Source: Leptogorgia sarmentosa | Taxonomy: Eukaryota | Reading direction: 5' to 3' | NCBI GenBank assembly: GCA_964658305.1 | Contig: OZ210885.1 | Location: 24,924,001 to 24,988,000 of the forward strand | Length of the DNA: 64,000 bases | Part shown: piece by piece, positions 31,827 through 59,887 of the stretch | Numbering within the stretch: position 1 is the first letter of the stretch | Layout: every line of letters begins with the position of its first letter | Made by a program: the position numbers and the translations under genes | The notes under the pieces: generated by a model | What the model was told of the DNA's origin: nothing | Databases searched by the model: none | The model's input: the letters and a program-made list of their open reading frames with translations, nothing else

Positions 31827-31928
31827 AGTAGGTTATCGCGTACATATGGCGCCGGAAGTAATTAGTATGCAAGGAGAACGAATGCCTTAGCGCCGGAAGT
31901 AAATAGCATGCGAAAAGTAGCGCTAATT

Positions 31929-34519
31929 AACAAGGGTGAATTTCGCTCTCGACCAATCAGCGCATTTGTTGACATTTTTGCGCTAAGCCAGTCAGAACGC
32001 GTAAATCGCTATTTTGTAAACAAAGATGGGTACAGATATATACTTTACTCTTCTGCTTTGTTGCCATTGGAATCTTGATATTTTATTCTGAAATTAGAAT
32101 ATGTTGTTTAGGAAAGATTTTCCTACAATATTACCGTGGCGATTTGTAAATAATGGCGATTTTGGGGAGATATGCACGTCCAAACTTTGCCTCGCGCAAG
32201 CATAAATAATGCCCTTCGAATCCACCAACCTTTTGATATCTTAACTTATTAACTCGTTAATTTCCCGTGTCTAAACATGGATCAATTCACGATCACAGTG
32301 TCATGAGTCATGATATGCACTACATGACTAACGGATGCTTTTGCGAACGTTTCAATCGCTTTTATTTTGCGAAGGAAAGCGAACGATATTCTGAAACTCA
32401 CCGAACTTCAAGACATCGAAGTCTCAAACCTATGCCAAGTTTTCACCCTCGATATCAAATTGAAGACATGAGGAATTCTTAGCAAATCTTGCACACGCTT
32501 ATGTCTGGAAGGTTGCACTGGAGATGAAACGAATTCCCACAGCCAAGAAAGACGCGCCATAATGTGCTTGTGTGAGTGAATGGACGGCATCACACACTCT
32601 GGTTTAAATCACAGAGTAAGAATAAGGTAAGAATTGATGTATATATTTTTATTGTACTATTTTAGAGACAAGGAAAGAACAGTGCAGCTGTCATTCAGTT
32701 ATAGAAAGTATATATTAGTAAAATTTATTGGACAAACTGAAATTCCCTATCTAGTTTTAAATTTGATGTTTTAATTTTGCAAGCAATAACACATTAATAT
32801 ATTGCACTGCAATTATATGACCAATTACATGTAACTTACTTTTGTAGATTTAGTGACATTTCCTCTGAGGAAAATCCAAGTGGGAGCACTCTGTTGGTTA
32901 CAACTTGTTCACCAAATAAATTGGGTAAGACCCATCTGCTTATGTCCTTCCTCTGCCTGCACTGCATCCCATGGTTGCTGGGTGGCTTGTCCTGAGTAGG
33001 AGTGGATTAGCTCAAACTTTTAAACTAAATATCTGCTGCTTTGGTTTTTAGACAATCAATCTGCTTTCTGCTGAAGTTAAATTTTCTGGGTGGGACAAAT
33101 GATGACTGAAACTCCTGCATTTCTTTCTTGCATGCATCAATCTCTCTGGGATCAATTGACTTAACGCCACACCCCACATGCATGGGTGGCATATATTCAC
33201 AAAATAAACCAGTCCCAAACCATATATCTGACCCTAACCACCAGTCCTAAACCATAACCATGTGGGGTGGCATTAAAGTCAATTGATCCCAGAGAGATTG
33301 ATGCATGCAAGAAAGAAATGCAGGAGTTTCAGTCATCATTTGTCCCACCCAGAAAATTTAACTTCAGCAGAAAGCAGATTGATTGTCTAAAAACCAAAGC
33401 AGCAGATATTTAGTTTAAAAGTTTGAGCTAATCCACTCCAACTCAGGACAAGCCACCCAACAACCACAGGATGCAGTGCAGACAGAGGAAGGACATAAGC
33501 AGATGGGTCTTACCCAATTTATTTGGTGAACAAGTTGTAACCAACAGAGTGCTCCCACTTGAATTTTCCTCAGAGGAAATGTCACTAAATCTACAAAAGT
33601 AAGTTACATGTAATTGGTCATATAATTGCAGTGCAATATATTAATGTGTTATTGCTTGCAAAATTAAAACATCAAATTTAAAACTAGATAGGGAATTTCA
33701 GTTTGTCCAATAAATTTTACTAATATATACTTTCTATAACTGAATGACAGCTGCACTGTTCTTTCCTTGTCTCTAAAATAGTACAATAAAAATATATACA
33801 TCAATTCTTACCTTATTCTAACTCTGTGATTTAAACCAGAGTGTGTGATGCCGTCCATTGCACTCACACAAGCACATTATGGCGCGTCTTTCTTGGCTGT
33901 GGGAATTCGTTTCATCTCCAGTGCAACCTTCCAGACATAAGCGTGTGCAAGATTTGCTAAGAATTCCTCATGTCTTCAATTTGATATCGAGGGTGAAAAC
34001 CAAGGCATAGGTTTGAGTTCGATGTCTTGAACGGTTCGGTGAGTTTCAGAATATCGTTCGCTTTCCTTCGCAAAATAAAAGCGATTGAAACGTTCGCAAA
34101 AGCATCCGTTAGTCATGTATAGTGCATATCATTACTCATGACACTGTGATCGTGAATTGATCCATGTTTAGACACGGGAAATTAACAAGTTAATAAGTTA
34201 AGATTTCAAAAGGTTGGTGGTTTCGAAGGGCATTATTTATGCTTGCGCGAGGCAAAGTTTAAACGTGCATATCTCTCCAAAATCGCCATTATTTACAAAT
34301 CGCCACTAGTGCACCAATATTGTAGGAAAATCTTTCCTAAACAACATATTTTAATTTCAGATTAAAATATCAAGATTCCAATGGCAACAAAGCCGAAGAG
34401 TAAAGTATATATCTGTACCCATCTTTGTTTACAAAATAGCGATTTACGCGTTCTGATTGGCTTAGCGCAAAAATGTCAACAAATGCGCTGATTGGTCGAG
34501 AACGAAATTCCCCCTTGTT
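31929..34519. mobile_element. Foldback (Mutator-like) non-autonomous element: ~1.25-kb inverted arms, ~80-bp spacer
   Basis: 31929-33180 is the near-perfect reverse complement of 33259-34519; 9-bp TSD GCGCTAATT at 31920-31928 and 34520-34528. Confidence 0.92.
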
Positions 34520-34810
34520 GCGCTAATTAGCATGCCAAAAAGTAATTAGTTTGCAGGGGGTTAATACGGCATGCAAAACGTTCGCGAGTAACAGTTGACA
34601 CCCGATGATGTGTGACAATTTCAAATAGTGTGTGTATTGTGATACGGATACGGTGGCCCAGAAGGGACAACACAATCAATAATTAAACCACTGCGATAAA
34701 ATTGAATTCGTGCAAATAACACAACCAATTCATTGCAAACAAAACATCAAACTGCAAACATATATTGAGTTACATTTTCCAACGACACTCTGCCAACAGA
34801 ATACAAAGTC

Positions 34811-35262
34811 ACGCTGCAAACAAAATAAAAAGCACGCTGCAAACAAAATAAAAAGCACACTGCAAACAAAATAAAAAGCACGCTGCAAACAAAATAAAAA
34901 GCACACTGCAAACAAAATAAAAAGCACACTGCAAACAAAATAAAAAGCACGCTGCAAACAAAATAAAAAGCACACTGCAAACAAAATAAAAAGCACACTG
35001 CAAACAAAATAAAAAGCACGCTGCAAACAAAATAAAAAGCACACTGCAAACAAAATAAAAAGCACACTGCAAACAAAATAAAAAGCACACTGCAAACAAA
35101 ATAAAAAGCACGCTGCAAACAAAATAAAAAGCACACTGCAAACAAAATAAAAAGCACACTGCAAACAAAATAAAAAGCACACTGCAAACAAAATAAAAAG
35201 CACACTGCAAACAAAATAAAAAGCACACTGCAAACAAAATAAAAAGCACACTGCAAACAAAA
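34811..35262. repeat. 23-bp tandem array (~20 copies) in the left TIR
   Basis: CA(C)(A/G)CTGCAAACAAAATAAAAAG unit, period 23. Confidence 0.95.
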
Positions 35263-35406
35263 ACTCTACACGAATGCGCGCGCAGATGTCAAAGGGAATT
35301 TCCTAAGGAAATATTTTTTGTAAGGAAATTTTGGAAGTTTACTTACATGATGAATGATGATTTGATGATTTGCATTCATTCGTGATTCATTCTCGCAAAA
35401 GCCAAA

Positions 35407-38400
35407 ATGTCGTCAAATCCGTCAATGAGAAATGAGATTCGCGAAGCCGTTCGAGAAGAAGTAACCCGTTTGCTTTCAGGCACTTCACCATCTACTTCTA
35501 CATCAGAAGAAACAAGACGACAATGCGATGACAAAAACCGTTCATCCTCGCGTTCATCAATCCCGTGTACCTCGCAATCTAGTTCGACGTTAACGTTCGA
35601 AGACTTTTATAAAATGCGTGAAAGCCAACGTCAATTAGGTTGTAAACCACAAAAAAAGAGGAAGAAAAGCCCTTCAACAAGCGCTCCAAAGAAATCGACA
35701 AACGTCGAAATTAAGGTTGGCATGGCTAGCCAGTCTGACGGAACTATTAAAACTCGCCGGGGTAAGACGCACGTGATAACCGTTAACTCATCTGCATCTA
35801 AAGAAGAGATCGTTCAAAAGGCTGTAGAAAAACATTCTAGTTTCGACCAGTCGTTTGATGACACTGTAGCATACGTGTTATTATACCCAGATTATCGAGA
35901 AGTCCATTGCATACCTGGAACTACGAAGCCCTTCGTACTCTCGGAATACAAACAGGCAATTTCAAAGGATTATAAGCGTCTTACTTTCTATCTCATCCCA
36001 TTGGACGATGTAGTAGATAATTCGGACGAAAGCGATCAAGAATCACGAAAATCCACGCCTGTACCTGCTGACATTCGCAAATATGTTTTCAATCCAATCC
36101 CTCCTGTCACTACCATTAACATTGACGATCAAGATGCTTTGTCAAAAGAATCTGCAGGTGAGGTATTTATCCAATACTGGTATAGTTGTATGACAGACAT
36201 GTTTAGTTTTGAAGATATTTCAAATTTTCCAATATTAAACGTGAATTGTCAGAATTGATATTATTATGTTGTGATACAAATGGATCAACTCAAAGGGCAG
36301 GGACTGGTTTATAATTTGAACCTCAATCCACAATGGACCCAAAGTGCACACAACCCAACACTTGGCAATTTTACATGATTGTCAATGTGGCATCTGTGCA
36401 GCTGAAATAGGTTAATTATATGTGTAAAAATATTAATTTTGTTATGGATAGAACTACTGAACATCACATAACTTGCATTATCATGGTGTAGTTTAACTGC
36501 ATGACAATCAAATTTCAAAATTGCTCTGCCACTCTTGAACATCCTGTCCTGTTCTTGAACATCTGTCCTGTTGTCAGTGCTCACTTGCCCTCCTAACTCA
36601 AAAATGACAGTTGTTTATACTGTAAAAATCAATAAATTGTTCAATTTTAAATTATTTTAAATAAGATATTGAGGAATCACATTGCTCAGTGCTTACAAAA
36701 TTTATCATAGTCACAATCACTGTGGATGCCTATGATTGAATACATTTCCATTTAGTACAATGCTTGATTGTGCTTATTGCTTAGCAGCTGTAGTTCAGTT
36801 GGCAAAGTGCTGCACTAAAATCTACTGGGTGGCAAGTCAATTCCTGCCACCAGAATGAGTGTTGTATTTCTTGCAGCATTCCTGGATCGTCTACTTGTTT
36901 GCAATCACGTTTTCCGAGAGTATTTGCATATTCTATAATGTTTTTGTTTCTATTGCAGTGCATGGTGTAGAGTGTCCAACCTGTTTCAACAAATTTCCTG
37001 TAGATGAAATCTTGCAGCATGCTGATTTATGTGCTTCTAGTATGATTGATTGGGACGTAAGCAATCCAAATGTTATGCCAGAAGATAGCAAATTAGATGA
37101 ACTTGCTAGTGAATTGTGGGATGATGATCCCATTGAGCTGCACACTCACCAATCATTAATCAACAAAGCCAAAGAAAATATGGAAACTGGGCAAACAATC
37201 AGGATTAATGTAACCAGAAAAACATTATGGGATGATTTTACTCGTGAAAGAGCAAGGCGACTAAAACCTAGCAAAATGTTGAAAGTTGTGTTTGTTGATG
37301 AACCGGCAATTGACGATGGTGGCCCACGCAGGGAACTCTTTTCAGGTAATCTCTGTCAAGAATCATGTGGGAAATTTTGTATTCTACATGAGGGGATGTT
37401 TCTCCATGTATAAATAGTTGCTAGGGTGGGAGCAACATCGTCCACCGTGCTTATGTAAATTTTTGTTCACTGTAGATATGTTGGAACTTGCAAAGCGGAA
37501 ATTGTTTCAAAATGGGTGGCCAGTTAAGTCAGTGATTGCTCTTTCTTCCCAGCAATTCCGTTTAGTTGGAGAATTGATGGTTATGTCGATATTACAAGGG
37601 GGACCTGTAACTGAATACAGAATACAGAAACGGCGTTTTCAAAACGAAAAGTATATTTACAAGTAATTACCATTTCACCATGAGCATGTCGCAAATTTCA
37701 CTTGGGCAAAGTAATATATGATCGATGCAAGTGCATTTATATTGTAGATCAATATGCATAAAAGATCAGTTTTCTGATTACTTGCCCCAATTAATGCAAC
37801 TGGAGGAGGGTTTGTCGACATGTGAAGTATTGGATTCCATTCAAAAGTTTCCAAGTGTTTGGAAAGCAATTTTCCATCCCAGTGACGACTTCAAGTTGAA
37901 TGCTGACAAATTTTTGGACGAAGTGGTCGTAGACTATAGCTGTTCACAGATATTGCGAGATAAAGAATTCGATACATATAAGTCATTTTGCAATGTGATA
38001 ATGCTTTATGATGATGGTAAGAGACTAAGAGTCAAACTTCCAAGTGCACATAGCACAGTATTTGTAAATGTACTGTATGTAACTTGAAACAAAATTTGAT
38101 GGGTTTGACAGTATTTATCCCCGATCTATTCAAAAGAGGTACTTGCAAATGACAGATCCACTGTCGCTTTGACTTTGGTAGGTCAATAAATTGTCTATAC
38201 ATTTTTAGGAATTGATGGAATTTATATGGATGAATTCGTGAAATGGATGACCGGTTCAAAAACCATACCACCCCTTGGATTTCCGAAAAAATACTCTGTG
38301 CGTTTCGTACATGGTTGTGAAGAAGGATGCCGCTGTCGACCTACAGTTTCTACATGCGATATTACATTGAAAATTCCAGTTCATCTGTCAACAGAAGAAG

Positions 38401-38459
38401 ATATGCGAGATGTTTTGAGATCAGCAATTAAGGACTGTGTCGGGTTTGGCAACATTTAA
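35407..38459 (+). CDS. Spliced G2E3-like HECT E3 ubiquitin ligase with UBZ-type zinc finger; probably internally deleted
   Basis: Exons 35407-36157, 36959-37345, 37476-~37606, 37748-38016, 38209-38459. Motifs CPTCFNKFPVDEILQHADLC, EPAIDDGGPRRELF, WMTGSKTIPPLGF, PTVSTC..LKIP, GFG. Splice phase mismatch after GGP at ~37606. Confidence 0.8.
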
Positions 38460-38887
38460 GCACATCCCTCGTTTATTGTTACGTTCATGCAGACTGTTCT
38501 ATTCAAGAGTTATCAATTAAAGCACAAAGACAAGATTATTCATTATTCTGATTGACGTTGCAATGACATGTCGTTCTTGGTTGCACCTTTTCACGGATTA
38601 TCGCCAAGTGACAGTAGGAAACATTCACGTTGGATATGATTTTCAGGTCCAGAAAATTACGCACTGTATCTATTATGTATACGGATATATTTACATTATT
38701 TTACCTAGTTTTGTTATTTCAATAATTCTTCACATTCATTTCGAACACTGCTGTTAATATCCAAGTGAGGAAAAACTACAACTTGACTGTAAAAGTTTAT
38801 GCATAATGCGTAACACCGTTCACATTATTTTGGGCTGAACGCATGATTATATACCGAATTTAAAGCATGAATTCTTGCAAGATTTTC

Positions 38888-40123
38888 CTAATTACCACGA
38901 GCAAATCGTGTTAGTTTTTCAAATAAGACACCAGCATCGCGGATGGATGATGGATGTTGTAGGGAATTGTTTTCCATGACATACTGAAAGTATTCTTCAA
39001 AAATTGAGTTCTCTTCGCTCTCTCCATCTTCCAATCTGTCCTCCATCTCTGCTATCTTTTCTGCTGAAACTGTATGCAAGCATTCATTGTGTCCAAACTC
39101 CTCAGGTAGGAAATACATCATGTCAGGAACACCTGAAATTGTGGCATGTTTTGACTTTCTAATGCGGTGTGAGTTCCAATAGTCTTTTACCTTGTCAAGA
39201 TCGGCCTGTAATAAATCTGCAAAGGAAAACCACAATGCTTCTCTATGAATGTCACTTGTGAGATCAAGTATATCAGACTCATGGAGATCATGAAAGAAAT
39301 CGATCCACCAACTCGAGCGTTGCTTTCGGAAGTGTGACCACTGGCATTCGATTCTCTGATTACGGGTGCTCGAGACATACTTGTGCGACTTTGAGCCTGC
39401 ATATTCATCGATTCCTTCTGCACGAAAATAACATTGCATTCCTGCTATTAAACCATTCTCAGTCCCAGGATCAGTGTACACACGAGTTGGACAACCCCTT
39501 GCAGCTTTGACATGCTTTAAAAAATATTTGGCTACAGAGCGTGGATTTTTATTGGATCGTTGTACTTCAAGCCAGATAATTCTTCTGCTGAATCCATCAA
39601 CACATCCGTGTATTGAAAAGCCGAAAAGCTTCAACTTATCATACCCATCGATATGCCAGCAGAAATTTGGGCCTGGCGAAACATAGGTCCTACGCTTCAG
39701 GCATCTACGTTTTCTCTCCTCCACGCCTTGGGGATCCACTTCTCTTAATATTGTCTCCACCACATGCCGCGGAACATTAATATGGTGTCTGATTCGTAAA
39801 ATGTGCCACATAGTCCTGTAACCATTCAGACTGTCGGGACCATTTCTAATCTCAAGTAAAATTAGGTCCCTTACCCGTCTTCTCAATTCGTCGTCCACTT
39901 CATGACGTCTTGACAATCCATAATCTTTCAGTCTTCGCTTGAGAGTTCTCTGATTAATCGTAATATTATGGTGTTTCTCTAGCATAAGAGTAATGTGCCT
40001 GTAAGTTAAACCCCGGTTAAAGTAATATTTAATCAATTCTTCCTCAGACCCATGTGGTAATTCACTATTTGTAGCAGTTTCGTTATCAGAATCCTCACTG
40101 AAACTTGACTCATCGGAGGCCAT
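38888..40123 (-). CDS. IS3EU-like DDE integrase-core transposase (411 aa, intact)
   Basis: N-terminal HTH (RTLKRRL); WHIDGYDKL..IHGCVDGFSR, TDPGTEN, STRNQRIE. Confidence 0.9.
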   Translation of the reverse strand: MASDESSFSEDSDNETATNSELPHGSEEELIKYYFNRGLTYRHITLMLEKHHNITINQRTLKRRLKDYGLSRRHEVDDELRRRVRDLILLEIRNGPDSLNGYRTMWHILRIRHHINVPRHVVETILREVDPQGVEERKRRCLKRRTYVSPGPNFCWHIDGYDKLKLFGFSIHGCVDGFSRRIIWLEVQRSNKNPRSVAKYFLKHVKAARGCPTRVYTDPGTENGLIAGMQCYFRAEGIDEYAGSKSHKYVSSTRNQRIECQWSHFRKQRSSWWIDFFHDLHESDILDLTSDIHREALWFSFADLLQADLDKVKDYWNSHRIRKSKHATISGVPDMMYFLPEEFGHNECLHTVSAEKIAEMEDRLEDGESEENSIFEEYFQYVMENNSLQHPSSIRDAGVLFEKLTRFARGN

Positions 40124-40190
40124 ATTGTTTTTTAAATATTACACGCAATCTCGTCCCCTAATTAAAGGTTGCGCGCGCACGGTTTTAAAC

Positions 40191-40388
40191 TTTTGTTTGC
40201 AGTGTGCTTTTTATTTTGTTTGCAGTGTGCTTTTTATTTTGTTTGCAGTGTGCTTTTTATTTTGTTTGCAGTGTGCTTTTTATTTTGTTTGCAGTGTGCT
40301 TTTTATTTTGTTTGCAGCGTGCTTTTTATTTTGTTTGCAGTGTGCTTTTTATTTTGTTTGCAGTGTGCTTTTTATTTTGTTTGCAGCA
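40191..40388. repeat. 23-bp tandem array (~9 copies) in the right TIR
   Basis: Reverse complement of the left array. Confidence 0.95.
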
Positions 40389-40726
40389 TGACTTTGTATT
40401 CTGTTGGCAGAGTGTCGTTGGAAAATGTAACTCAATATATGTTTGCAGTTTGATGTTTTGTTTGCAATGAATTGGTTGTGTTATTTGCACGAATTCAATT
40501 TTATCGCAGTGGTTTAATTATTGATTGTGTTGTCCCTTCTGGGCCACCGTATACGGAAGACCACATGTATTCACACATTGAATAGTGTTAATCCTATATT
40601 TGTTCATGGATTCAATGCGACAATTGACAAAGGGATTACTTAAAGTAAATTGACTGGTCACATTCATAGCGATGAGTGACAGTTTTTGTAAATGAGAATG
40701 CATTAGTTCGATATAATCCATGTAGG

Positions 40727-45413: not shown

Positions 45414-45788
45414 CATGTAGGAAGCGCTAAATTAGCATGCAAAAAGTTCACGCTAGTTAGTATGCAAAAGTAACTGGTATGCAAAAAGTAAATAGTATGC
45501 AAGACGTTAATTGATTCAGACAGCGGTTAGTGCAATTAGTGAGGGAATTCTTATAGGCAGAGTAGCGTGTCGCGACATGTATTCAAGACACATATGCATG
45601 TTATAAAAGTGAACTTGTATACGCATATAAAAAAGGTATAATTTTCAGTAAAAGAGTGTGTGTGTGTGACTAAAAAGGACGTGTGACAGTAGAATAAATG
45701 TCAAATATATATCGTATTATGATACAGAGGCGCACATATGTTGTCACAATCAGTAACCTTGACCCGAACACAGGGCTAGGACCCTCTT

Positions 45789-46061
45789 TGTGCTTTTGTG
45801 GAATATTCCACAAAAGCACAACTTGTGCTTTTGTGGAACTTGTGCTTTTGTGGACTTGTGCTTTTGTGGACTCAGGCCATTTAGGACCATGTGCTTTTGT
45901 GGACTTTATTTGTGCTTTTGTGGACTTTATTTGTGCTTTTGTGGACTTGAAATTTATGACCATGTGCTTTTGTAGACTTTATTTGTGCTTTTGTGGACTT
46001 GAAATTTAGGACCTTGTGCTTTTGTGGACGAATGCTTAATTCTGATTGGCTTTTGTGGACT
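45789..46061. repeat. Cluster of about a dozen TGTGCTTTTGTGGA(C) motifs
   Basis: Directly visible; further copies at ~55458 and, inverted, at ~55625. Confidence 0.9.
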
Positions 46062-46687
46062 TGCTTTTGAATCTGATTGGTTAAGAGCTGCGGACAGCTT
46101 AACTCTGCAGGATTAAGGCGGGGTTTCACCAAACTTGGCACACATGGCCGCAGACCAGTGGTTGACATTTGACAATGGTGCGGTTCACATATCTCAGGAT
46201 GGTTTTGACCAATCGGGCTAATAATTGGTCAGTTGTTACATTGTCCGAGGCACTATTGTGCAACATAGCCAATTTGGCAATTTGAAAATTGATGTTGTCG
46301 GATGGACTTAAGACCATGTGGATACAACTCCCCATGGTCCCTAGATCATGATGGGCTTGGTTTTGAGACCACGCCCTGACCACGCCCACTAAAAATGATC
46401 AGCTTGGCCCAAAACATATTTTGAAATCATTAAAAAATGGGCGTGGTCGATATTTTTTTCAGGTGACCACGCCCATCAAAGTTGTTTAGAATTGTCCGAA
46501 ACGTATTTTGGAAAATAAAAAAATTTTTTAGGGCGTGGCAAAATTGACCACGCCCAAAAAATTTTTAAAAGTTGTTTAGTTGTTTACGAGGAACATTTTT
46601 GCAATATATTTGTTTAAGGAAAAATAGGTACTTCGTGGTGAAAACGCGTAGAAATTATATAGAAATTCATATTAGATTTCAAAATCC

Positions 46688-48637: not shown

Positions 48638-48709
48638 TCAAATTTTGCACCATATTGTTGCGAATAATATATATCTATAAAACATATATATATATATTGT
48701 AAAGAACTT

Positions 48710-51449
48710 GTAAAGACTCGGTGTCCCAGGTATTTATTTTCCTGCCGCCACTGTATACCCAGGAAGCCGCTTTCTTCAGTGACGGCAGTTCTTGTACTTT
48801 CTTGGTTTCAAGGTAGTCATGTGCCTCCTGTGGCACAGCGCCCGCCAGCTTCGGATTCTGCAGACACTCTTTTTCCACGAGAGCAATTTCGGGCACCAAA
48901 CCTTTGCTCAAAACAACGCCAAAGACTTGTAGCAGCTGTTTTTTCTGCTGGACGCTCAATATCGGGTGGTCAGGTAGCTAAATAAAAAAAGAATTATGAA
49001 CAACGATATCTTTTGTGGGAGAAAACAATTTCCCAAAACTTTTTTATATCAGGTAGTTACCTTTCTTGTGCCGTTGCCTTCCTCCTCCTCGCTACCATCA
49101 TCATCATGATGAGAGCCTTCACGTGGTTGATCGATATCTGTCGTGTGTTCAGGTAGCTAAATAAAAAAAGAATTATGAACAACGATATCTTTTGTGGGAG
49201 AAAACAATTTCCCAAAACTTTTTTATATCAGGTAGTTACCTTTCTTGTGTCTTTGCCACCAGTGACAGTTTTTATAAATGTCGCCATGTGGAGGTCTTCT
49301 TTTTCAGTGTTGGCGACGTTATAAAATTGGTCAGCAGTACTGACCGCATGCGTCATCTGTTTGGCAAGCTGTTCGTTTGACACTGTTCACGACTCTCCTA
49401 GTTTTTGCTGGCCACTGATTATGGCTTTTCTTAGGCCAGCCCCGTGGATGTCGACGCCCATCCTTTTGCCGATGGTATTAATTCTTAATTCGGCTTACCC
49501 TGGACTCGTTGAGCACGTTTCCATTGCAGTTGATAAAAAACAGCGGCTCCGAAGGCAAGCCAGACTTCGCTTCCGAGACGGACTCGGCATTTGCGAACAA
49601 TGGTCGCATATGGGCCTTGTAGATGTCCCCCATTCGTTTCAGCTCGGCGTCCCAAAACAGCTTAGCTGGACCTTTAGATGTAGCAGTCTTGTGGTGGTGC
49701 GTCTGCGTCACAAACAAGTCGCCCGTCATCTGGCCGCGCTCATATTCCGCGACCGTCAGGTTTGCTAGGGCCCCACATCGCTGCCCACTTGCCATCAGTA
49801 GCCGTAGCATGAGAAAATCTCTCATTTCAGAGAATTCGCCCACTGACACCAGACGGTCGGGGTCCTCCAATTCTGTGAATAGTTCCCGAACGTCCTGGCT
49901 GGTTTTAGTTGCCAACATCCGGGAAAAATCTTCGGTACCAAGAAGACGCTCTTGGGCGTGGCTTTTACCTCCGCCCGACGCCGCGTCACCGCCATCGTTA
50001 ATGAACCTGGCCAGAAATCGAGGCGTGATAGAGCCGCCCGCACAAGCTCGAGATCACGATCGGTCAGCTTGTAGATCCGCATAATGGTCTCCACACGGCT
50101 TTGGACAAATTTTAAAAAGAGCCTGTATGACACGATGTAGGTCTTGAGGGTCTGCGCCTTCCTTGGTCTTTGGAGAAGATCGTTCCCTCGGAAGAAGTTG
50201 TTCCGAATCTTATCCAGGGACTCGTCGGCCCAGAGCAGACGGACATTTTTGCCGCTCGAATCAATCTCGTAGAGAAGGCGACAGACCCTCCTTGCGTGTT
50301 CCTTGGCGTCAGATTTCTTGCGATTTTTACCTTCGAACGAGGTTAGGTGCCGGTGGAAGAGTTGGAAGAGGGGATGTTGGGAAATGCCCGTTATTTTCTC
50401 GGGCAGTGGGTCGTCTTTTGGGGCCCTTGGTTCTCGTGACATCTTTTCGAGTTCTCTTTAGACGTCCCCCTCCCCCTCGTGACTGCCGTGCTCTGACGGT
50501 GACGATGGTGACGACGGCCTGGGAGAGGCGGGAGTTCTGCTCGACTCGACGGCAATTCCACGTCGTTTACGTCTTCTTTCGTCGTTTGCCATCTGAGTGA
50601 ATCTACGATAACAAAACATATGTGGTCAATTAATTGCTGCATAAGTACTGTTATTATTATTATATGTATGTAATATAAACATACTAACCGCCTGAAGTCC
50701 GGGTTTTCCGGGTCCATTTTGTGGACGCGTTTGAGATGGTTGTCCAATCTCAACTGCCATTTCTGGCAGTCTTCGATTGGACACTTCACCTTGATCTTTC
50801 CCGCTTCCATCGGTTTGAATCCCGAACTCACTTTGACGGCCTCTTTGTTCGTTTTGCCGTGCACGCGTCTTAGGTGCTTTGTCATATACGCCACCTCGGC
50901 GTCGCAAAGTTGGCATTGACGCCTCTTCCTCTCGTACTAAAATAAAATAAACACCTTTTAATATATAACTCGAAAAATATATATCTAATATATATAATAT
51001 ATTATATAGAATATATATATCTATATATATAAAATATAACACGGCACGAACCTTCCCTTTCCTATTCCCCGCATCTTCAACCTCTTCCTCTGAGGGGGAA
51101 GATGGTTCTTGCCGTGGTGCAGCTGGTGCAGTTGGTGCAGTTGGTGCAGTTGGTGCAGCTGATGCGGCTCGTTTCTTAGCCTTCTTTCGCGGAGATGGGG
51201 CCATAATGTCAATACCGTGGAAAATCTCGAGATCTTCCTGGGCTAAAGTTTTATTATCAAAGAGATAATTTAAATTAATATAACTTTATAAATACATAAC
51301 AGTTGGAAATACGTTATTATAATTCACAAAGATATATATACCTTTCACTTCCGAAAACTCTGCTGGAGTAGGCTCGTACTCCGACTCACTGGACAGCTCC
51401 GAATCGCTGCTTGAAAATAGCATTGGTGTCTGCTTGGAAGAAGACATTC
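48710..51449 (-). pseudogene. Spliced tyrosine recombinase gene with two N-terminal C2H2-like fingers; frameshifts and in-frame stops
   Basis: Manual translation: SGQRCGAL (R), HHKT (K), GLRKAII (R), LAKQMTH..TADQFY (H, Y); CQLC..HLRRVH and CPIEDC..HLKRVH; frameshifts ~49960 and ~49480; TGA ~49388. Confidence 0.85.
48969..49250. repeat. Two identical ~100-bp intron-containing segments, 180 bp apart
   Basis: TCAGGTAGCTAAATAAAAAAAGAATTATG...GTAGTTACCTTTCTTGTG at 48969 and 49149. Confidence 0.85.
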
Positions 51450-51786
51450 TAAATAAAATATAAATTTGAATGTTCATGAATAATGTTAATGGATGAAAAA
51501 CGATTCAGAATCACAGAATTTTTTCTTGAGTATATATATATTGTGAAAATGTTTCCGGCAACCATATAAACATTATCAAAATGATTCTGGTCTCATATGA
51601 CTGGGCGTGGTCGCGATTCACCAATGTAAACATTATGGTATGTGACCGCGCCCCGTTTGGAGTACATAATTTCTGTTTTCACACATTCTGTTACTCTGTA
51701 TCTGGGCATCGAGAAAATGTTCACTGGGTTTCTGTAGCTTTGAAAACCACAGAGATATTGTATGGTAAAGTAGGTCAAATTACCAT

Positions 51787-53735
51787 TTATGACCATGTTC
51801 AACTTCACATAGCCACCTTAATATAATTTCATAAGTTACCGCAACCACCCAGAATCCGTCTCTAGTACATGTACTTTAATGTGTCAAAGAATGAATAGCA
51901 TACATGGTAACCTACAAGAGAACTGGGATGAAAAGTTTGAGAAATTAATGCAGAAGAGTTGGTAAAATTTTAATGGTGCATGTTGGTATTTTTTTTTCAA
52001 CTTTTCATCCCATATCTCCTGTAGGTTTCTATGTATGCTATTCATTCTTTGACACATTAAATTACATGTACTGGAGACGGATTCTGGGTGGTTACTGTAA
52101 CTTATAAAATTATATTAAGGTGGCTATGTGATGTTGAACATGGTCATAAATGGTAATTTTACCTATTTTACCATGCAATATCTCTGAGGTTTTCAAAGCT
52201 ACAGAAACATTGAACATTTTCTCGATGCCCGGACACAGAGTAACAGAATGTGCGAAAACAGAAATTATGTACTCCAAACGGGGCGTAGTCACATACCATA
52301 ATGTTTACATTGGTGAACCCAGACCACGCCCAATCATATGAGACATCCAAAATATAGGTCATGTTTATATGGTGATGGTGAGTATGTTTACAATATATAT
52401 ACTCAAGAAACAATGAGTATATCATGGTGAAACGTCTTGACAAACATGGCCTTGAATGCGCATGCGCCATAAATGCTCTTGTCTTATATATTATATTACA
52501 ATTTTGTTTATAACTTTGTAACGAAACATTATTAGACAGTGGTTCAAATATCATTACAATCGTCGTGTTACGCGCTTTAATTTGATATATCGTTCGTTGT
52601 ATAAACATGTTCTATTCATGAGTTATTAACAAATTAATGAAAAATGTTGGCGGCCATATTGGATTTATGAATTTCTATAATTATCTTACAATTTTGCTTA
52701 TAACTTTGCAAGGAAACGGTGTTAGACGGTGGTTCAAATATCATTACACGCCCCGTATTACGGGCTTCAATTTGATATATCGTTTGTTGTATAAACATGT
52801 TCTATTCATGAGTTATTAACAAATTAATAAAAAATGTTGGCGGCCATATTGGATTTTGAAATCTAATATGAATTTCTATAAAACTGTTCATGCAATATCT
52901 CTTTTACCTTTACGTGAATACACTTCATGCTTTGCCACGTGAAAGTGCATGTATTAGGCAAGGATTCTGGGTGCTTGCTGTAACTTATAAAGTTATATTA
53001 AGGTGGCTACGCGACGTTAAACATGGTCGTAAATGGTAATTTGACCTACTTTACCATGCGATATCTCTGTGGTTTTAGAGGCTACAGATACGTAGTGAAC
53101 ATTTTATAGATGCCCAGACGCTGAACAACAGAATGTTAAGAAAAGCAATTTTTTTACCGCAAACTGGGCGTGGCCACACACCATAATGTTTACATTGGTG
53201 AACCCAGACCACGCCCAATCATATGAGACATCCAAAATATAGGTCATGTTTATATGGTGATGGTGAGTATGTTTACAATATATATACTCAAGAAACAATG
53301 AGTATATCATGGTGAAACGTCTTGACAAACATGGCCTTGAATGCGCATGCGCCATAAATGCTCTTGTCTTATATATTATATTACAATTTTGTTTATAACT
53401 TTGTAACGAAACATTATTAGACAGTGGTTCAAATATCATTACAATCGTCGTGTTACGCGCTTTAATTTGATATATCGTTCGTTGTATAAACATGTTCTAT
53501 TCATGAGTTATTAAGAAATGAATGAAAAATGTTGGCTGCCATATTGGATTTATGAATTTCTATAATTATATTACAATTTTGCTAATAACTTTGCAACGAA
53601 ACAGTGCTAAACGGTGGTTCAAATATCATCACACGCCTCGTTGTACGAGCTTCAATTCGATATATCGTTCATTGTATAAAAGCGTTGTATTCACAAGTTA
53701 TTAATAAATTAATGGGAAATGTTGGCGGCCATATT
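51787..53735. repeat. Right arm of the ~1.95-kb inverted repeat
   Basis: Reverse complement of 46688-48637; mirrored spurious ORFs in the track. Confidence 0.88.
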
Positions 53736-56228
53736 GAATTAAGGTGGCTATGGGACGTTGAACATGGTCATAAATGGTAATTTGACCTAATTTACCATGC
53801 AATATCTCCGTGCTTTTACATGCTACAGAGACGTAGTGAACATTTTATGGATGCCCAGATGCTGAATAACAGAGGGAAAAAATTTTTTTACTCCAAACGG
53901 GGCGTGGCCACCCATCATAATGTTTACATTCGTATATCTCTGCGGTTTTAAACGCTACAGACATGTAGTTGCTGTGGCAAGCATTGCGTTGTAAACTCTT
54001 GTAGATGACTCTTGTCCCATGCCCCCATCATGCAACGCGGGGGAGAGACATATGGTAACGTATTTATGGTCTGACCACGCCCATTTTGGCAAAAAAATAT
54101 TTGAAACCACCAGATTTGTAATTGCTTGGTGGTATGCTAACTAAAATTATTGTTAAGGTGGCTCTGCAATTTAAACCTAAAAAGCTCGGCAAAACTAGGG
54201 TTAGTTTAAATTGAAAATTTGAAGCCTTTTGGGCCATTTTTCAAAATTCTAAATGGTACCCATAATTCCTTGGAATACCAAAAATTGGCCCATGGAAGTG
54301 GTTCCGTAAATATTGACGATGATGGCTGTTGAATTTTAATGAAGTTTGAAAAGTTTGAAAATATGTCATCGCAATTGCGTCATAAATTTTGAATTTCTCG
54401 ATGCGAATTTTTTTGTGGCGAATCCCCGCGCGGAGGACAATATAACTGTGGTGGAGAAATTTTCTGTTATTTAAACGCAGCGAAGATATCAAAAGACAAA
54501 GTTTTACGTATTGAATGGCTTATAAATGTCTCAAATTTTAATTTTTTTTAATGATTTTCACAAGTGTTATAGCACATGATGAGACGTATCAGACTGTGCA
54601 ATTAGATTTTTAAATGAAGCTATCCCCAGTCACCGAGCGTCCATTTTAGAAAAACACAAAATCGGCAATATCTCATGAACCAAGACCTAAAATGAAAAAA
54701 AAAAAATCATCTCGAGGTATTTCCAGGTGCTTCCACTTCACGAAGTTTGGTGTGTTTCCACTTTAAAAAAAAAAGTTATCGTGTTCGGAAAAAGGGCAAA
54801 ACATTGCCATAAAATACACATAAAAGTCGATATAAAAAGATACTGTAGCTTTATGAGAAAAGTTTACTTTTTAAAGTTTACACTGTCTGGTACAAAATTG
54901 GACGGGCTACAAGCTGAAAAAAAAACAAAAAAAAATGAACTCATTCCCAGGCCTGTAGATCGAGAAAACTGAACTTTGGAAAAAGTATTATATCTTCTTA
55001 CTGTTTTAAGATATTAAAAAACGGTAACGACAGTTAGGTAGCCTGCATCGACATGTACAAACGAGGAAAGTTTGAAGCAATTAGACCAGGGAGAAGCAGG
55101 AAAAATCCGGGGGGGAAGTTCTTTGGAATGGGTCCAAATGACCCCCCTATGGAGAAGTCGGTGAAGATCATCTTTTTCCGGAATTCTGACGACGGAATCA
55201 TGTTCACCACCCACGATTACCTATACACACCGAGTTTCAACCTCCTAGGTCCTTTCTAACCATAATTTTTTTTTTGTCAGGGCTGGGTATATACCACCAA
55301 TGTGTCACCATACATATACCTGACTTTTTGGGAGACCCTGGAAACTCTCATTTAGGACCATCTTAGGGTTTTCGGGGGTGCCCTACACGATGGAAAACAT
55401 GACAAACCCCCTTGGTTTGAATAAAAACCCTCTTCATGGGGCTGGTACACAGAACTTGTGCTTTTGTGGATTTCTTTCCTTCCAACCCCCCCTGAAGGCG
55501 CGCGTTTTAATATTTTTGAAAAATTTTTTTAAGGAATTGTTGCCCAGGTCCCAAAGTACATGTGTACCAAATTTCAAAAAAATCCACCATAACCCCCCCC
55601 CCAGAGGGTCAATTTCAAGGAAATTCCACAAAAGCACATGGTCCCAGTTAGGGCGAAGGTTCTTTCGCTGTTCCAATGAAACATCGTGTGGTTATTTTGA
55701 ATGGATACCTGAAGAATCGTTGAAACCGCAATTACCGCATAGCGTTGAAGAACCTTTTATACCGTCGTTCTACAACTATGGTGGCCCATCGTTATCACCG
55801 CAATTTTCAGGAATATTTCTATATCGTCTTTCATTTAAATAATTGTTTTGTTTATAAATTAAAGACATATGACAAAAAAAACTTATTTAGTGTATTTACA
55901 AATGTAAAATAATACTGATTTTCAGTTGTAATACAAATTGTTTCTTGTGTTAAACTGAATTTTTTTTTAAATGCAACAAGTTTCAGTAAATTAATTAATA
56001 TTTTGATTGATAACGCTGGGCCGTTCGAATTTTAGTTTTTGATCGGCCCAGAACTGCCCAACGTTATCAGTTTGCTCCATAAAGACTGGGTTCAATAATC
56101 AAATTTCCCGCTCTTTTTTCCCACCATTTCAAATTCCGCCATATTGATAAATTTCATATATTTGTCAACAGGCTTGTTGAATCCAATCATAGCTTGAGTA
56201 GTGTGGAATTATTCGTATGTAGTTAGCG

Positions 56229-57502
56229 ATGTCAAAACGGAAACAGGGCAAAGAGAGTTGGGAAGCTTTTGAAAGAAGAGTAGGGTTAAAGCGGACCCGT
56301 CAAGAGCGAAATCTTGCGTCGGATAAAAGAACACTTGTCCCAAATGACATATTAGTGCAGAGAATGTCAACTTCTCCCAGTGGAAGACTGAAAAAATACG
56401 AGCCGTTAGACACTAGAGACTTTGTCCCATTTGCAGAATATGAGGAACTTTCAATAGAGAATATTAAAGACGCTTGTGAACAATTCTATAACGCACCGGC
56501 GGGGTCGTGTGACATTCTAGCTTCGGACCGAGGACCATCGTGTACAAAAATGGAACAAATCAAGGGGAAAAAGGTGTATTTTATCCGTTTCTTACCACCT
56601 ACGGAGCTTAATACGACAAAACAGCCTACAGTTATGGGGTCAAATTCGTCGCCAATTTCGTCATCGAAGATTGCTAATGTTGATAGCAACCATCCTACAA
56701 CCCCTAAGACAGTTTATCCAAAGTCAGTTTCTATCGGGGATCTTCTTCGGGCTGGGAAGCTGGTACGACCTCCACAGTTAACAACTCTCACATTGGAAAC
56801 GTTTGATGTCGAAAAATGTGAATGGACAAAAAATAATTTGACTTTGTCTGTTGAAATAGAGGAAACCAAGTTTGACAGTGGAGCCTTCAGAGATGCCTTC
56901 CGAGCCAAATGCAGAGATACATCATCTGGCCTGGCAGGTGAATGGGTGATAAAGAAATACAGAGACGAAGCTGTTACCACCATACAGGAGCAGTTGCAAA
57001 TGTCTGTGGAAGATCATACAAGAAAACAAGTTCAAATGCATGCAGTTGCTCGGAATTTGACATCACGTTTCTCTGTTAAAGTGCCCCAGGAATTTGGAGA
57101 AGCTTTCCAGTATGGAAAAGTCTTTTATTCCCAATGGAATGAATGCCCAGTTACTGTTGAAGAATATGTAGAAGGTGTTTTCACTAAGTACATCAACAAT
57201 GATGGGGACATAATGAAGCCTGATGACATTGAATCTGATGAGATTTTCCAGAAAGCACAGTGCCTGGTTCACTTCACATACATATATTCTGAGAAAAGGC
57301 TAATGGTCCTAGATATACAAGGTTCAGCATATAAACTTATGACCCAGAAATTGTGACTACAGAGCTTATGGCAAAGACTGACAAATCCCATGAGGTATAT
57401 TTTTGTGCTGGCAACCTCTCAACTATGAGCATTAACAGTTTTGCAGATAGTCATGTGTGCAATAAATTTTGCAAGATGATGGAACTGCAGTCATTAAAAT
57501 AA
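56229..57502 (+). CDS. Intronless alpha-kinase (eEF2K/TRPM6-7/MHCK-type catalytic domain) with a 1-bp frameshift near 57338
   Basis: FDSGAFRDAF, WVIKKY, VEEYVEGVFTKYINNDG, HFTY..LMVLDIQG; the shifted frame continues YDPEI..FCAGNL..HVCNKFC to TAA 57502. Confidence 0.88.
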
Positions 57503-58037
57503 CATTGAACTTTTCAATTAGTTCCTTTACAAGTATAGATTTGACATTAGTTGTGTTTTCTTAACATTTTTACTGGTTACATTACATTTATGTATTATTT
57601 ATTGTATTATTGTATTACAAACTTTATTGTCCCTCCAGATGGCACAGATTGCTTCTCTGTGGGTGGATATTGAAGAGTTTTATACAATGTGAATATGAAT
57701 GTCAAGGTCTTCCAATTTTGTCTAAATTTTATAATAGAAAATTATACAGTTTAACAGTATTTCATGCATATAAACTCAAATATACATCCATCTTGGGTTG
57801 TTACAGAAAAAAATCCATACTCTGCCCACAGAGGAAATTCTGCTGCCCAGAAAGGGGGAGGGAAAAAATTGTTTCTGATAATAATAAATGTATTAGGACA
57901 TCTGAAGGGGGTAGAGGGGGGGGTTACTTCTTTTTTCTCTGTAGGGGTAGTATGAATGTTTTATGGAATGACCAATTAACCTAATTACTATATGTACAGT
58001 AACTCCTGAATATGACCTCAATGTTATAATAGTTCCT

Positions 58038-59264
58038 TCATGTTTCTGGTGGATAAGGAATGTTTTGCTTGAGGAATCGGTAAGCTTCAATTGCATTCTT
58101 AGCTTCAATGTTTTCAGGATTTGGAATCAGTCCCACACATTGTTGCCTTGTATTTGCTTCAATGAAATGAACTATGTGTTCTTCATCCATCACTCCTGAA
58201 ACGTCAGCAACATCCTGGATGTCATCCTCTGACAACTCAATTCCTTCATTTGTGGCTTCATAATTCTCAGGGAAAGAAAACATGTGGTTAGGTATGCCAA
58301 CAGGAATTTCCAACTTATCTTGTGCACATATTCTGTGTGAATTCCAGTAGTTAACAAAACTATTACATTCTCTTTGAACTATAGGTACATAAATATAAGC
58401 GAGCAATTGGCGATCATGTGCAAAGTCAGGATTGTACTCTCGTCTTTGCAGCAGGGCTGTTAACTGTTGCTTGAAGAATTTCTCCAACCTTTCATGCAAG
58501 TCTCGCCACCAACGCTCTATCTTATTGCTTGTTGACGGACCATAGATCACAGAATCTGTAGGGTCATTCATAATTGCAAATTTGTTTATGAGATATGAGT
58601 GAATAGTAGCCATTTTACCAGTTTCAGTTCCTCTGTCAATTCTCAAAAATCTAGGAAGGATCTTTGTTTCAAACAGATATTTTAGGTACATCTTACCCAC
58701 AACAAAAGGATCTGAGTTCGAAGTGCATACAAATAAGAATAAAATCTTTCGAGAGAAAGTGTCAAGGCATCCATATATACCAAGAGGGAATGTCCAGTTT
58801 TGGTAGCCGCAAAGTTTATCATGACCATCCAACGACACTACCCACAATGGACCTTCTGAAGTAAAATGTCCCTTTGGTTTTTTCCTCTTCTTCTGAAGAT
58901 TCCTTGCCTCTAATCCAGCTGGGTCCAAGTCTGCCATCATATTATGGACTACATGCCTTGGTACTTGTATCTTGTGATCTGTTCGTAGCTTCTGGTTCAT
59001 GGCTCGATAGCCTAGAAGTCTGCCAGGGCCATCTAATTCTTTTTGTACAGCTTCTGCTACTGCAGCTAGTGGAGTATCATAATTAATATAGTGAATATCG
59101 AAGTGACGAAGACGTCTATCAAGAGTAGCAAGACTCCATGAATACTCCGAATAATCGCGTCGCACAAAATCTAGTATTTCACATCGTCGTAAATTTTGAC
59201 CAACGTAGCATTTCAAGTCGTTCTGGAGCTCAGTATTTTCCTTCCAACTGATATTTTCAGCCAT
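58038..59264 (-). CDS. IS3EU-like DDE integrase-core transposase (intact)
   Basis: ATLDRRL, LLGYRAM, SLDGHDKL..IYGCLDTFSR, IDRGTET, STSNKIERWW; homologous to 38888-40123. Confidence 0.9.
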   Translation of the reverse strand: MAENISWKENTELQNDLKCYVGQNLRRCEILDFVRRDYSEYSWSLATLDRRLRHFDIHYINYDTPLAAVAEAVQKELDGPGRLLGYRAMNQKLRTDHKIQVPRHVVHNMMADLDPAGLEARNLQKKRKKPKGHFTSEGPLWVVSLDGHDKLCGYQNWTFPLGIYGCLDTFSRKILFLFVCTSNSDPFVVGKMYLKYLFETKILPRFLRIDRGTETGKMATIHSYLINKFAIMNDPTDSVIYGPSTSNKIERWWRDLHERLEKFFKQQLTALLQRREYNPDFAHDRQLLAYIYVPIVQRECNSFVNYWNSHRICAQDKLEIPVGIPNHMFSFPENYEATNEGIELSEDDIQDVADVSGVMDEEHIVHFIEANTRQQCVGLIPNPENIEAKNAIEAYRFLKQNIPYPPET

Positions 59265-59887
59265 ACAATCAAGCAAATACACACAACATTGAGTTGCACA
59301 AAAACATCGTGGGCATTTTCATGGTGTAAATAAATTAGCGGGAATTTAATAATTAGCGGGAAATTTGATTATTGAACCCAGTCTTTATGGAGCAAACTGA
59401 TAACGTTGGGCAGTTCTGGGCCGATCAAAAACTAAAATTCGAACGGCCCAGCGTTATCAATCAAAATATTAATTAATTTACTGAAACTTGTTGCATTTAA
59501 AAAAAAATTCAGTTTAACACAAGAAACAATTTGTATTACAACTGAAAATCAGTATTATTTTACATTTGTAAATACACTAAATAAGTTTTTTTTGTCATAT
59601 GTCTTTAATTTATAAACAAAACAATTATTTAAATGAAAGACGATATAGAAATATTCCTGAAAATTGCGGTGATAACGATGGGCCACCATATACAACCCTT
59701 GTCAAAATTGAAACATTTATAGAACATTATATATATTGCTAGTTGATTTGGAACCGTTTAAATGCATAGAGTACAGCTGATTTTGTAATGTTCTAAGTAC
59801 ATAGTAAAACGTATTTGCAAATGGTTTTAAATATATATTTGAAATGCTTCACGATATCATGCTCATTTGATTTTGTCCTGGGGAAAG

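Follow-up and report, generated by a model that had tools for sequence, protein, structure and literature searches.

At the left end of one defective Polinton copy in Leptogorgia sarmentosa, five inserts totaling 27 kb stand side by side, each with a target-site repeat. The question raised by this locus is why so many insertions gathered there without landing in one another. The window, i.e., the whole stretch of DNA that was analyzed (64,000 nucleotides, contig OZ210885.1, positions 24,924,001 to 24,988,000), was the subject of an earlier note, which described five unrelated elements in a Polinton left end of about 870 bp and suggested targeting of the terminal region.

The Polinton and its left end

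The host element is a Polinton/Maverick, as judged from its predicted ATPase, protease, and capsid genes. The stack region heads a run of genes on the + strand. The first of these is a conserved small helical accessory ORF (59888..60248, +) with matches in 6 of 62 related loci, which is frameshifted near 59955–59977 in the window copy (two frames compared with locus L007); a Bcl-2 identity was dropped for this ORF, as Foldseek returned no match at E ≤ 0.001. It is followed by the packaging ATPase (60325..60960, +), an open frame of 211 aa to which 1749 of 1864 candidates are homologous at E ≤ 1e-20, and by two conserved Polinton ORFs (60996..62257, +; one of 108 aa, the other of about 311 aa and containing a 24-bp tandem repeat) that have tblastn matches in many loci. 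The ATPase is 45% identical to that of viral contig L001, in which polymerase, integrase, capsid, and protease ORFs were recognized by eye. An adenovirus-type protease (62375..62929, −) is suggested by a Pfam Peptidase_C5 match below the cut-off (E = 0.0036) and by colinearity with L005, L009, and L012. The likely major capsid gene (62875..64000, −) runs out of the window and carries an in-frame stop at 63961–63963; across the stop it is 70.7% identical to an ORF of L009 and 44.7% identical to one of L001 (E = 1e-98). The capsid label is one that we assume from general Polinton gene content. Neither DNA polymerase B nor the rve integrase of a Polinton was matched within the window, and the element continues past 64000. 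The related loci come from a one-protein scan of viral contigs (0 loci), an alignment scan (1 locus), and a metagenome scan (61 loci).

The boundary with the left flank is marked by a hAT transposase C-terminal remnant (31526..31826, +; Pfam Dimer_Tnp_hAT, E = 5e-8) that is cut at the Polinton start. By eye, similarity to a complete hAT ORF in the left flank ends at about 31827, and positions 31821–31826 are a candidate Polinton target-site duplication (TSD) whose partner lies outside the window. The first spacer, S0 (31827..31928, +), is likely the Polinton left terminus, an assignment made from the window sequence rather than from run contigs. Its opening hexamer differs at one position from (AGT)2, which along with (AG)3 is described as a Polinton end motif in the available part of PMC8097293. 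A motif of S0 recurs in S1 (score attained in 0 of 500 shuffles) and in S3 (1 of 500). No right TIR partner is present in the window, past whose end at 64000 the element runs, an 18-base end pattern has no match in the viral contigs, and none of 18 close metagenome loci (1–6 kb long) matches a terminal spacer.

The remaining spacers, all read on the + strand, differ in character. S1 (34520..34648) is a terminal-region spacer with a repeated motif that aligns to S0 and S3 (0 of 500 shuffles each), and S2 (40552..40726) is a variant terminal repeat unit of low depth that aligns to S3 (0 of 500 shuffles). S3 (45414..45776) is a high-depth Polinton subterminal unit, with a depth about 4–9 times that of the insert E3 in all four sequencing runs compared. 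It ends at a deletion near 45769, the position after which contigs depart from the window in 4/4 runs; the deletion adjoins insert E4 and likely removed 0.4–0.9 kb or more. The last spacer, S4 (55651..55776), retains the 3' portion of a Polinton GRF zinc-finger gene, the 5' portion of which is absent (Pfam Zn_ribbon_GRF, E = 1.8e-5, 25.2 bits, under the cut-off of 25.9). The whole gene is found at the equivalent position in L007 (E = 7e-20), and in the window copy it is split by E4 and E5. With the duplicated TSDs excluded, the Polinton spacers sum to 102 + 120 + 169 + 355 + 122 = 868 bp. The amount of target DNA given in the earlier note was therefore reproduced, but its description as one contiguous, wholly terminal left end was not, given the deletion near 45769 and the coding nature of S4.

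The 4.3 kb to the right of the stack is free of insertion, as the earlier note had observed; this was verified with run contigs to 61900 and by comparison with related loci for 62442–64000. The core genes are insert-free yet not intact, and the stop in the capsid gene, the frameshift, and the deletion together indicate that the window copy is defective.

Five inserts of four kinds

The first insert, E1 (31929..34519, no strand assigned), is a 2591-bp non-coding foldback with 1265-bp arms that are 96.8% alike and a 9-bp TSD; no ORF of at least 100 aa is present in it. Based on TSD and shape only, E1 is classed as Mutator/foldback-like, a 9-bp TSD being reported for Mu elements in the available part of PMC2774946.

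E2 (34649..40551, −; 5903 bp) and E5 (55777..59690, −; 3914 bp) both have TA..TA ends and a 6-bp TSD, with TIRs of 362 bp (99.2% identical) and 336 bp (100%), respectively. Each encodes a transposase on the − strand with a Pfam rva_4 match (E2: 416 aa, E = 1.8e-34; E5: 426 aa, E = 5.7e-20), and the two are 31% identical (E = 3e-39). A second gene lies on the + strand in both elements, in pieces in E2 and encoding an alpha-kinase in E5. TA..TA termini and a 6-bp TSD define IS3EU/GingerRoot elements (PMC10045372, as excerpted). Judged from their termini, TSD, and rve-type DDE transposase (Pfam), E2 and E5 are assigned to a single superfamily, IS3EU. Consequently, the five elements described as unrelated in the earlier note are of four kinds. 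E5 also contains an old MITE-like piece of about 190 bp that is present in other E5 copies.

E3 (40727..45413, −) is 4687 bp long and has a TIR of about 18 bp and an 8-bp TSD, as is typical of hAT elements, which have 8-bp TSDs and short TIRs. Its transposase is split into 688 and 469 aa in the window copy, relatives being 1044–1091 aa long, and has no Pfam match. Its ESM Atlas neighbors carry DUF4371/ZBED5 families at 0.88–0.90, a lead toward the hAT family, and a DxxH-like motif was noted by eye in a search for the hAT C/DxxH motif. E3 is likely a hAT-like DNA transposon on these sequence features. Dada, suggested by the DxxH motif, was set aside because the TSD is 8 bp rather than 6–7 bp and TIRs are present; Dada elements are not known to have TIRs.

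E4 (45777..55650, −) is 9874 bp long with a 4-bp repeat or 9873 bp long with a 5-bp repeat. It contains a broken gene at about 49230–51285 for a putative tyrosine-recombinase-like protein; the R-H-R-Y motifs were found by eye and are spread over a frameshift and a stop. The candidate recombinase has no Pfam, PHROG, or PDB match, and the Atlas lead is weak (row 3, Phage_integrase, 13% of members). Nesting inside E4 was considered for an internal inverted repeat of 1957 bp; since this repeat lacks a separate TSD and its motifs recur in the outer portions of the insert, E4 is provisionally treated as one element. The 4- or 5-bp repeat fits the 4–6 bp direct repeats at Crypton ends (PMC3212892, in part). 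However, Cryptons are expected to lack TIRs, and short, imperfect inverted repeats occur in subterminal positions of E4 in addition to the long internal one; because of these it is filed as Crypton-like only.

Each insert is flanked by an exact TSD (9, 6, 8, 4–5, and 6 bp for E1–E5), and re-derivation of coordinates, TSDs, and spacers confirmed five side-by-side insertions. A TIR-plus-TSD scan and self-BLAST of the window revealed no nesting among the five after their arrival, in agreement with the earlier note. For E1 and the bodies of E2 and E4, the absence of nesting is read from the window sequence; E3 and E5 are also colinear with copies in 4/4 runs. A shared target motif was rejected as the cause, since no common sequence is apparent by eye at the five target sites.

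Clustering, other copies, and explanations for the stack

The clustering was evaluated with simple uniform models. If five insertions hit the visible element, the probability that all fall in the end region with none nested is 1.2e-6 if nothing was deleted and 6.5e-4 if 3 kb were lost. At the left-flank rate of 2–3 complete elements per 24–31 kb, the probability of at least five insertions multiplied by the number of window positions is 2e-7 to 2e-3. With a 2–3 kb deletion, the probability that five insertions fall into a stretch as short as the one observed, at any position of the visible element, rises to 0.08–0.14. The stack was picked after the fact among very many windows, and the rest of the Polinton lies beyond this one. 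Non-random clustering is thus supported under simple uniform models and is lost if the deletion exceeds 2 kb and the regional rate is high. The expectation in the earlier note that random insertions should hit earlier inserts carries little weight on its own, as the probability of no nesting is 0.09–0.14 for a Polinton of 15–20 kb; the clustering is the real surprise. With respect to terminal-region targeting, the non-random clustering stands under these models, but targeting of Polinton ends in general is not supported, as the sites of E4 and E5 are empty in other copies in 4/4 runs.

An unlikely explanation is a chance pile-up in a transposon-dense region of low constraint, where a deletion then drew the sites together and the scan took the extreme. 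Element fragments abound in the left 32 kb (BEL, two hAT types, a Tc1-like piece, MITEs), an un-nested outcome has a probability of 0.09–0.30 for a target of 15–37 kb, and the cluster probability is 0.11–0.26 when a 2–3 kb deletion and 10 flank insertions are assumed, a generous regional rate. In vertebrates, 96% of Maverick loci are degraded, including by large insertions (PMC8097293, available part). On the other hand, the 31.8-kb flank holds only two complete TIR-plus-TSD elements and one LTR pair, in a scan that undercounts (it missed E1 and E4). Chance also has to account for the clustering of E1–E3 within 391 bp on the left side of the deletion, regardless of how large it was, and for 27 kb of inserts plus 4.3 kb of core that received no insertion.

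The locus was compared with four of nine DNA sequencing runs; X4 and X6–X9 were left out, X8 and X9 having next to none of the window words. The Polinton family is multi-copy and polymorphic in these data, which raises the distinctly improbable alternative of an assembly mosaic, wherein alleles or copies with single inserts were threaded into one path. Among the contigs listed, none spans two inserts, and only one of the four runs (X5) has a listed contig across the S2–E3 junction, with 30 letters on the E3 side, one below the bridging rule. X5 is possibly the window's own source, and it has only 0.61 of the core's sampled words. There are 0 differences between X5 and the window over 40598–40756 and over three long pieces of E5. 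The five TSDs are exact, and the long inverted and tandem repeats keep distinct arms (96–97% alike), which would be unexpected in a collapsed path. A mosaic would still require five insertions in one short region of the family.

In other copies, an exact joint lacking E5 is present in 4/4 runs (shorter side 93, 24, 121, and 24 letters), and contigs that enter S4 without E4 number 7, 5, 3, and 4 in the four runs. S2 is preceded by sequence other than E2 in three of the four runs. No joint lacking E3 is among those listed in the four runs, a result without evidential weight. Because other copies are empty at the checkable sites, the insertions likely mark a hot spot confined to this copy, as opposed to cargo that a virus carried around. 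Divergence from the closest listed contigs is about 0.6–1.6% for the core, 0.1–0.7% for E3, and 0–0.8% for E5; the lower values for E3 and E5 fit inserts younger than the Polinton.

These data bear directly on family-wide targeting or hitchhiking, in which transposons would favor Polinton ends and ride active copies, as Ngaro does with virophages. The idea has precedents, as 91% of type 1 Ngaros are located in EMALEs (PMC8547959, available part) and MULE/LINE elements in PLVs and virophages are proposed to be shuttled (10.64898/2026.07.28.741278, available part). The empty sites argue against it here, as does the depth of the inserts, which is well below Polinton depth. Additionally, sequence that does not resemble the Polinton stretch follows the ends of E3 in X1 and X2 and one end of E5 in X2, and none of the 3 + 12 joints listed ties an end of either insert to a different place in the Polinton. 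The 62 related loci, which are short, have no match to nine window transposon proteins. Together with the defects of the window copy, these results leave the virus-like vehicle of the earlier note unsupported, and family-wide targeting or hitchhiking is the least probable explanation considered.

A transposon trap is given little probability. The left-end promoter would read through the inserts, and antisense ones would be kept for piRNAs in a nascent single-strand cluster. The transposase or recombinase is on the − strand in all four coding inserts, opposite to the left gene run of the Polinton, the left-flank elements occur in both orientations, and antisense capture is a model for flamenco-like clusters (PMC10643416, available part). 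However, the 4/4 orientation has a two-sided p = 0.125, E2 and E5 carry their second genes on the + strand, the strand bias in that part of PMC10643416 is specific to Gypsy elements, and nested insertions would be expected as well. A related proposal, which has a similarly small probability, is that the left-end promoter of the dead Polinton is active in a coral germ or stem-cell line and founds a putative new piRNA-source locus. Unrelated DNA transposons would be drawn into about 1–2 kb and transcribed antisense. If true, an endogenous DNA virus would found a piRNA locus, and its formation could be watched as a population polymorphism.

The best, if tentative, reading is a locus-specific hot spot with putative accessible chromatin at the left end of the dead Polinton. 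The 1–2 kb left terminal/accessory region would have stayed open to transposases as a patch of promoter-type chromatin, while the inserts and core genes did not. Inserts may have come singly after the Polinton and been tolerated because the copy was dead, and access to DNA, rather than a common sequence, would have drawn the IS3EU, hAT-like, Mutator-like, and tyrosine-recombinase types. Hot spots driven by access have precedents (PMC2774946, PMC1592238, both in part). CpG content fails to part hot from cold DNA (spacers 0.80–1.86, core 1.11). The hot-spot model leaves the sparing of the inserts' own promoters unexplained.

A separate observation runs against a left-end promoter patch, in that E4 and E5, two of the five inserts, fall in the coding region of a small gene and not in terminal or promoter DNA.

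Relation to known systems

The window copy resembles the degraded animal Polintons/Mavericks (adintoviruses, coral polintoviruses) described in the available portions of PMC8097293, PMC8502044, and PMC11131425. Shared features are the ATPase, protease, and capsid-like genes, two convergent modules, a candidate AG-type end, an accessory region by the end, and decay via stops, frameshifts, and secondary insertions. It differs in that five inserts occupy the first 1–2 kb while the following 4.3 kb is free of them; those portions give no positions for secondary insertions. Transposons are likewise nested in endogenous Polinton-type viruses in the case of Ngaro in EMALE virophages of Cafeteria (PMC8547959), MULE/LINE in Halocafeteria PLVs (10.64898/2026.07.28.741278), and retroelements in cryptophyte PLVs (PMC12220804). 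As far as the available text of these sources describes, the virophage and PLV cases are family-level, over many viral copies and mostly with one insert type, whereas here four kinds are found in one copy.

Many insertions within a span ranging from hundreds of bases to several kb are known for P elements in Drosophila heat-shock promoters (PMC1592238) and Mu in open chromatin (PMC2774946), and the eri-6/7 locus (PMC11414722) has many insertions in a short span, with Polinton remnants and other TEs. In the parts of these sources at hand, the access hot spots are largely alternative population alleles or involve one family, in contrast to one assembled haplotype in an element rather than a host gene. 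A likeness is offered by the tandem TE dimers that arise when a single target is hit twice (PMC5932611, available part), which are side by side and un-nested. They are of the same family with only a TSD between them, whereas the inserts here use different enzymes, have no common target, and stand 120–355 bp apart.

Neither transposons within Polinton-type viruses nor hot spots driven by access are new in themselves. The unusual aspect is that four enzyme classes occur in one short stretch of one haplotype, sparing 27 kb of each other; no multi-superfamily stack at a Polinton end was found among literature titles and abstract openings, a set outside which most subscription papers and Repbase reports fall. 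This is one locus with a candidate mechanism, and the family-wide and hitchhiking readings are weakened. If confirmed by long reads, the stack would provide a compact natural test of whether, in a cnidarian, a dead virus keeps an open promoter that draws in or traps transposons.

Five inserts in one Polinton end

The left end of this broken Polinton copy holds five transposon inserts, E1 to E5 from left to right, separated by Polinton spacer pieces (S0 left of E1, S1–S4 between successive inserts). TSDs of 9, 6, 8 and 6 bp flank E1 (31929–34519), E2 (34649–40551), E3 (40727–45413) and E5 (55777–59690), and E4 (45777–55650) has a 4-bp flanking repeat, or a 5-bp one if the element ends at 55649. 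The insert positions proposed in the earlier note hold, the flanking repeats of all five are exact, and the spacers total 868 bp with duplicated TSDs excluded. As also proposed, none is visibly nested: self-BLAST and a TIR and TSD scan returned no post-arrival nested element, a result that for E1 and the bodies of E2 and E4 appears to hold from sequence. In four sequencing runs there are copies with which E3 and E5 align colinearly, small gaps aside. That the stack is an assembly mosaic is quite unlikely.

The description of these elements as unrelated was not borne out; there are four kinds, since E2 and E5 are both IS3EU (definition as excerpted from PMC10045372), with TA..TA termini, 6-bp TSDs and rva_4 transposases sharing 31% identity. 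E3 is likely hAT-like, as judged from its 8-bp TSD and an Atlas lead, and the closest named relative of its protein is from Paramuricea clavata (82%), which points to a probable octocoral host, or one close to octocorals. E4 appears to be Crypton-like (compared with excerpts of PMC3212892), with a seemingly broken recombinase-like gene, and E1 is a foldback element without coding capacity.

E5 contains an alpha-kinase gene (56223–57356, Pfam E 3e-22) that faces its transposase, and an old MITE-like piece (57788–57975) that has very high depth in four of four runs and also occurs in other copies of E5. The second gene of E2 (35386–38087, + strand) is fragmented; its pieces had no match in a Pfam search, one looks zinc-finger-like by eye, and one we take, by eye, to resemble a HECT ligase. 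Within 46655–53930 of E4, repeat units of 885 and 190 bp, direct and inverted, flank the recombinase-like gene, and a 1957-bp inverted repeat in E4 has arms that are 95.8% identical. In the left flank, a BEL/Pao LTR retrotransposon (14334–21795) has an open 1948-aa ORF and LTR segments that are 99–100% identical; a clean TG..CA plus TSD was sought for it and not found. Another hAT-like transposase of the E3 type (22290–25080) is distant from E3 (24–38% identity) and likely contains introns.

The Polinton target and its decay

At 31827 a hAT ORF is interrupted by the onset of a sequence one mismatch off (AGT)2, a Maverick end motif according to excerpts of PMC8097293. Motifs are shared between S0 and S1, S1 and S3, and S2 and S3 with scores matched by 0 of 500 shuffles each, and between S0 and S3 with a score matched by 1 of 500; the likeness of S2 to S0 and to S1 was not significant in this test (500 shuffles). 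S3 depth is approximately 4–9 times that of E3 in four of four runs, depth being no copy number. S2 and S3 (40552–45776) resemble tandem repeat units of a subterminal region that have diverged from each other, and contigs of two runs (X2 and X3) connect mid-S3 with S2 positions.

Comparison of S4 with S0–S3 revealed no common sequence. S4 codes for the terminal part of a GRF zinc finger, and since the entire gene sits at the equivalent position in the metagenome locus L007 (part of it in L003), E4 and E5 split this small accessory-region gene. In four of four runs, contigs track S3 up to 45769 and then diverge from the window, and others (7, 5, 3 and 4 contigs) reach S4 at 55650 from non-E4 sequence. 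Residues 1–116 of the 180 in the L007 GRF protein, and its upstream ORF, had no match in the window. Taking the layout of L007, a relative whose ATPase is 76% identical, as the reference, at least 378 bases would have been lost, or approximately 940 if the upstream ORF was once present; consequently, the original target was likely 1.2–1.8 kb or more. The earlier picture of one left end of about 870 bp is not confirmed, given that S4 is coding and is separated from S3 by a deletion beside E4.

Rightward from E5 come a small accessory ORF, an ATPase, two conserved ORFs, a protease and a capsid-like gene. Metagenome loci show a colinear arrangement, and the viral contig L001 is a relative. The copy is defective, as the accessory ORF is frameshifted, the GRF gene is truncated and the capsid-like gene has a stop (63961–63963) inside its homology region. 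An in-frame tandem repeat (24 bp, 9 copies; 61974–62192) ends one conserved ORF.

The accessory ORF before the ATPase is conserved and all-helical (59888–60248; L007:1315–1683), and its NFGR motif presumably resembles Bcl-2 BH1. The L007 homolog has a confident predicted fold (pLDDT 89), with which Foldseek returned BAX in the top row (E 1.2) and other Bcl-2 proteins in weak rows, none significant. Partial sources mention Bcl2 homologs in adintoviruses. Accessory genes near the ATPase vary among related Polintons, with a leucine-rich-repeat membrane protein in L008 and L009 (weak Pfam match, L009:1036–2217), one reversed ORF in L004, L005 and L014, and a polymerase-like ORF immediately upstream in L010.

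Copies in other sequencing runs

Nine runs from two studies were found, seven of which contain part of the core genes and four of which were compared in detail. An exact E5-empty joint (55770 to 59691) occurs in all four (short side at least 31 letters in two), beside two variant empty joints, and non-E2 sequence precedes S2 in three of the four. No E3-empty joint is among the joints listed for these runs. Among the junctions listed, X5 alone has the occupied S2/E3 one (30 letters reach into E3, with 0 differences), and the window itself may derive from that run. Other sequence lies beyond ends of E3 in both X1 and X2, and beyond one E5 end in X2; in none of the 15 joints listed does an end of E3 or of E5 connect to a different place in the Polinton. 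Divergence from the closest listed contigs is approximately 0.6–1.6% for the core, 0.1–0.7% for E3 and 0–0.8% for E5.

Family-wide targeting of Polinton ends, suggested earlier, is opposed by the empty E5 site, the non-E4 entry to S4 and the defective copy, and is highly improbable. Hitchhiking on an active virus is likewise opposed by the empty sites elsewhere, the lack of E3/E5–Polinton joints among those listed and the copy's defects.

Clustering and its possible causes

Conditional on five hits in the visible element, the probability that all fall in the end region without nesting depends on the deletion: it is 1.2e-6 at 0 kb, 3.6e-5 at 1 kb and 6.5e-4 at 3 kb. The probability of no nesting alone is an unremarkable 0.09–0.14 (15–20 kb element). 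The earlier argument from non-nesting carries little weight on its own, and it is the clustering that is improbable under simple models. The probability of at least five insertions, multiplied by window positions, is 2e-7 to 2e-3 at a left-flank rate of 2–3 complete elements, and 0.11–0.26 with 10 flank insertions assumed and a 2–3 kb deletion. The flank is undercounted, since the same scan missed E1 and E4, and the region was picked post hoc out of a very large scan. A chance pile-up is unlikely, if a serious contender, and non-random clustering is probable without being certain.

Polinton-type viruses have already been described as transposon hosts. Excerpted sources report Ngaro elements in EMALEs (PMC8547959), Halocafeteria elements with MULE and LINE inserts (10.64898/2026.07.28.741278) and cryptophyte PLVs that contain retroelements (PMC12220804). 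Across strains, the eri-6/7 locus gathers other TEs as well as remnants of Polintons (PMC11414722, in excerpt), and parts of PMC11131425, PMC8502044 and PMC8869645 give further context. Same-site dimers, as excerpted from PMC5932611, differ from this stack in being same-family and abutting. Literature searches brought up no title or abstract opening that deals with multi-superfamily stacks at Polinton ends.

A piRNA trap, as modeled in the part of PMC10643416 consulted, would fit the antisense orientation of the transposases (4 of 4, p = 0.125) and is very unlikely. The best-rated reading, held tentatively and at slightly less than even confidence, is a hot spot at one locus. Accessible chromatin at the left end, at the head of a + strand gene run, may have attracted unrelated enzymes, whose target sites have no sequence in common by eye; access would be the draw. 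Precedents are Mu, which inserts in open chromatin (PMC2774946, in excerpt), and the P element, which enters heat-shock promoters (PMC1592238, in excerpt); CpG content in the window gave no support for accessible chromatin. The insertions, deletion and decay, and the empty sites elsewhere, are observed, and we infer their order in the history of the locus. The arrangement is real and unusual, at one locus, and the mechanism proposed for it would be a local hot spot that accessible chromatin may have created.
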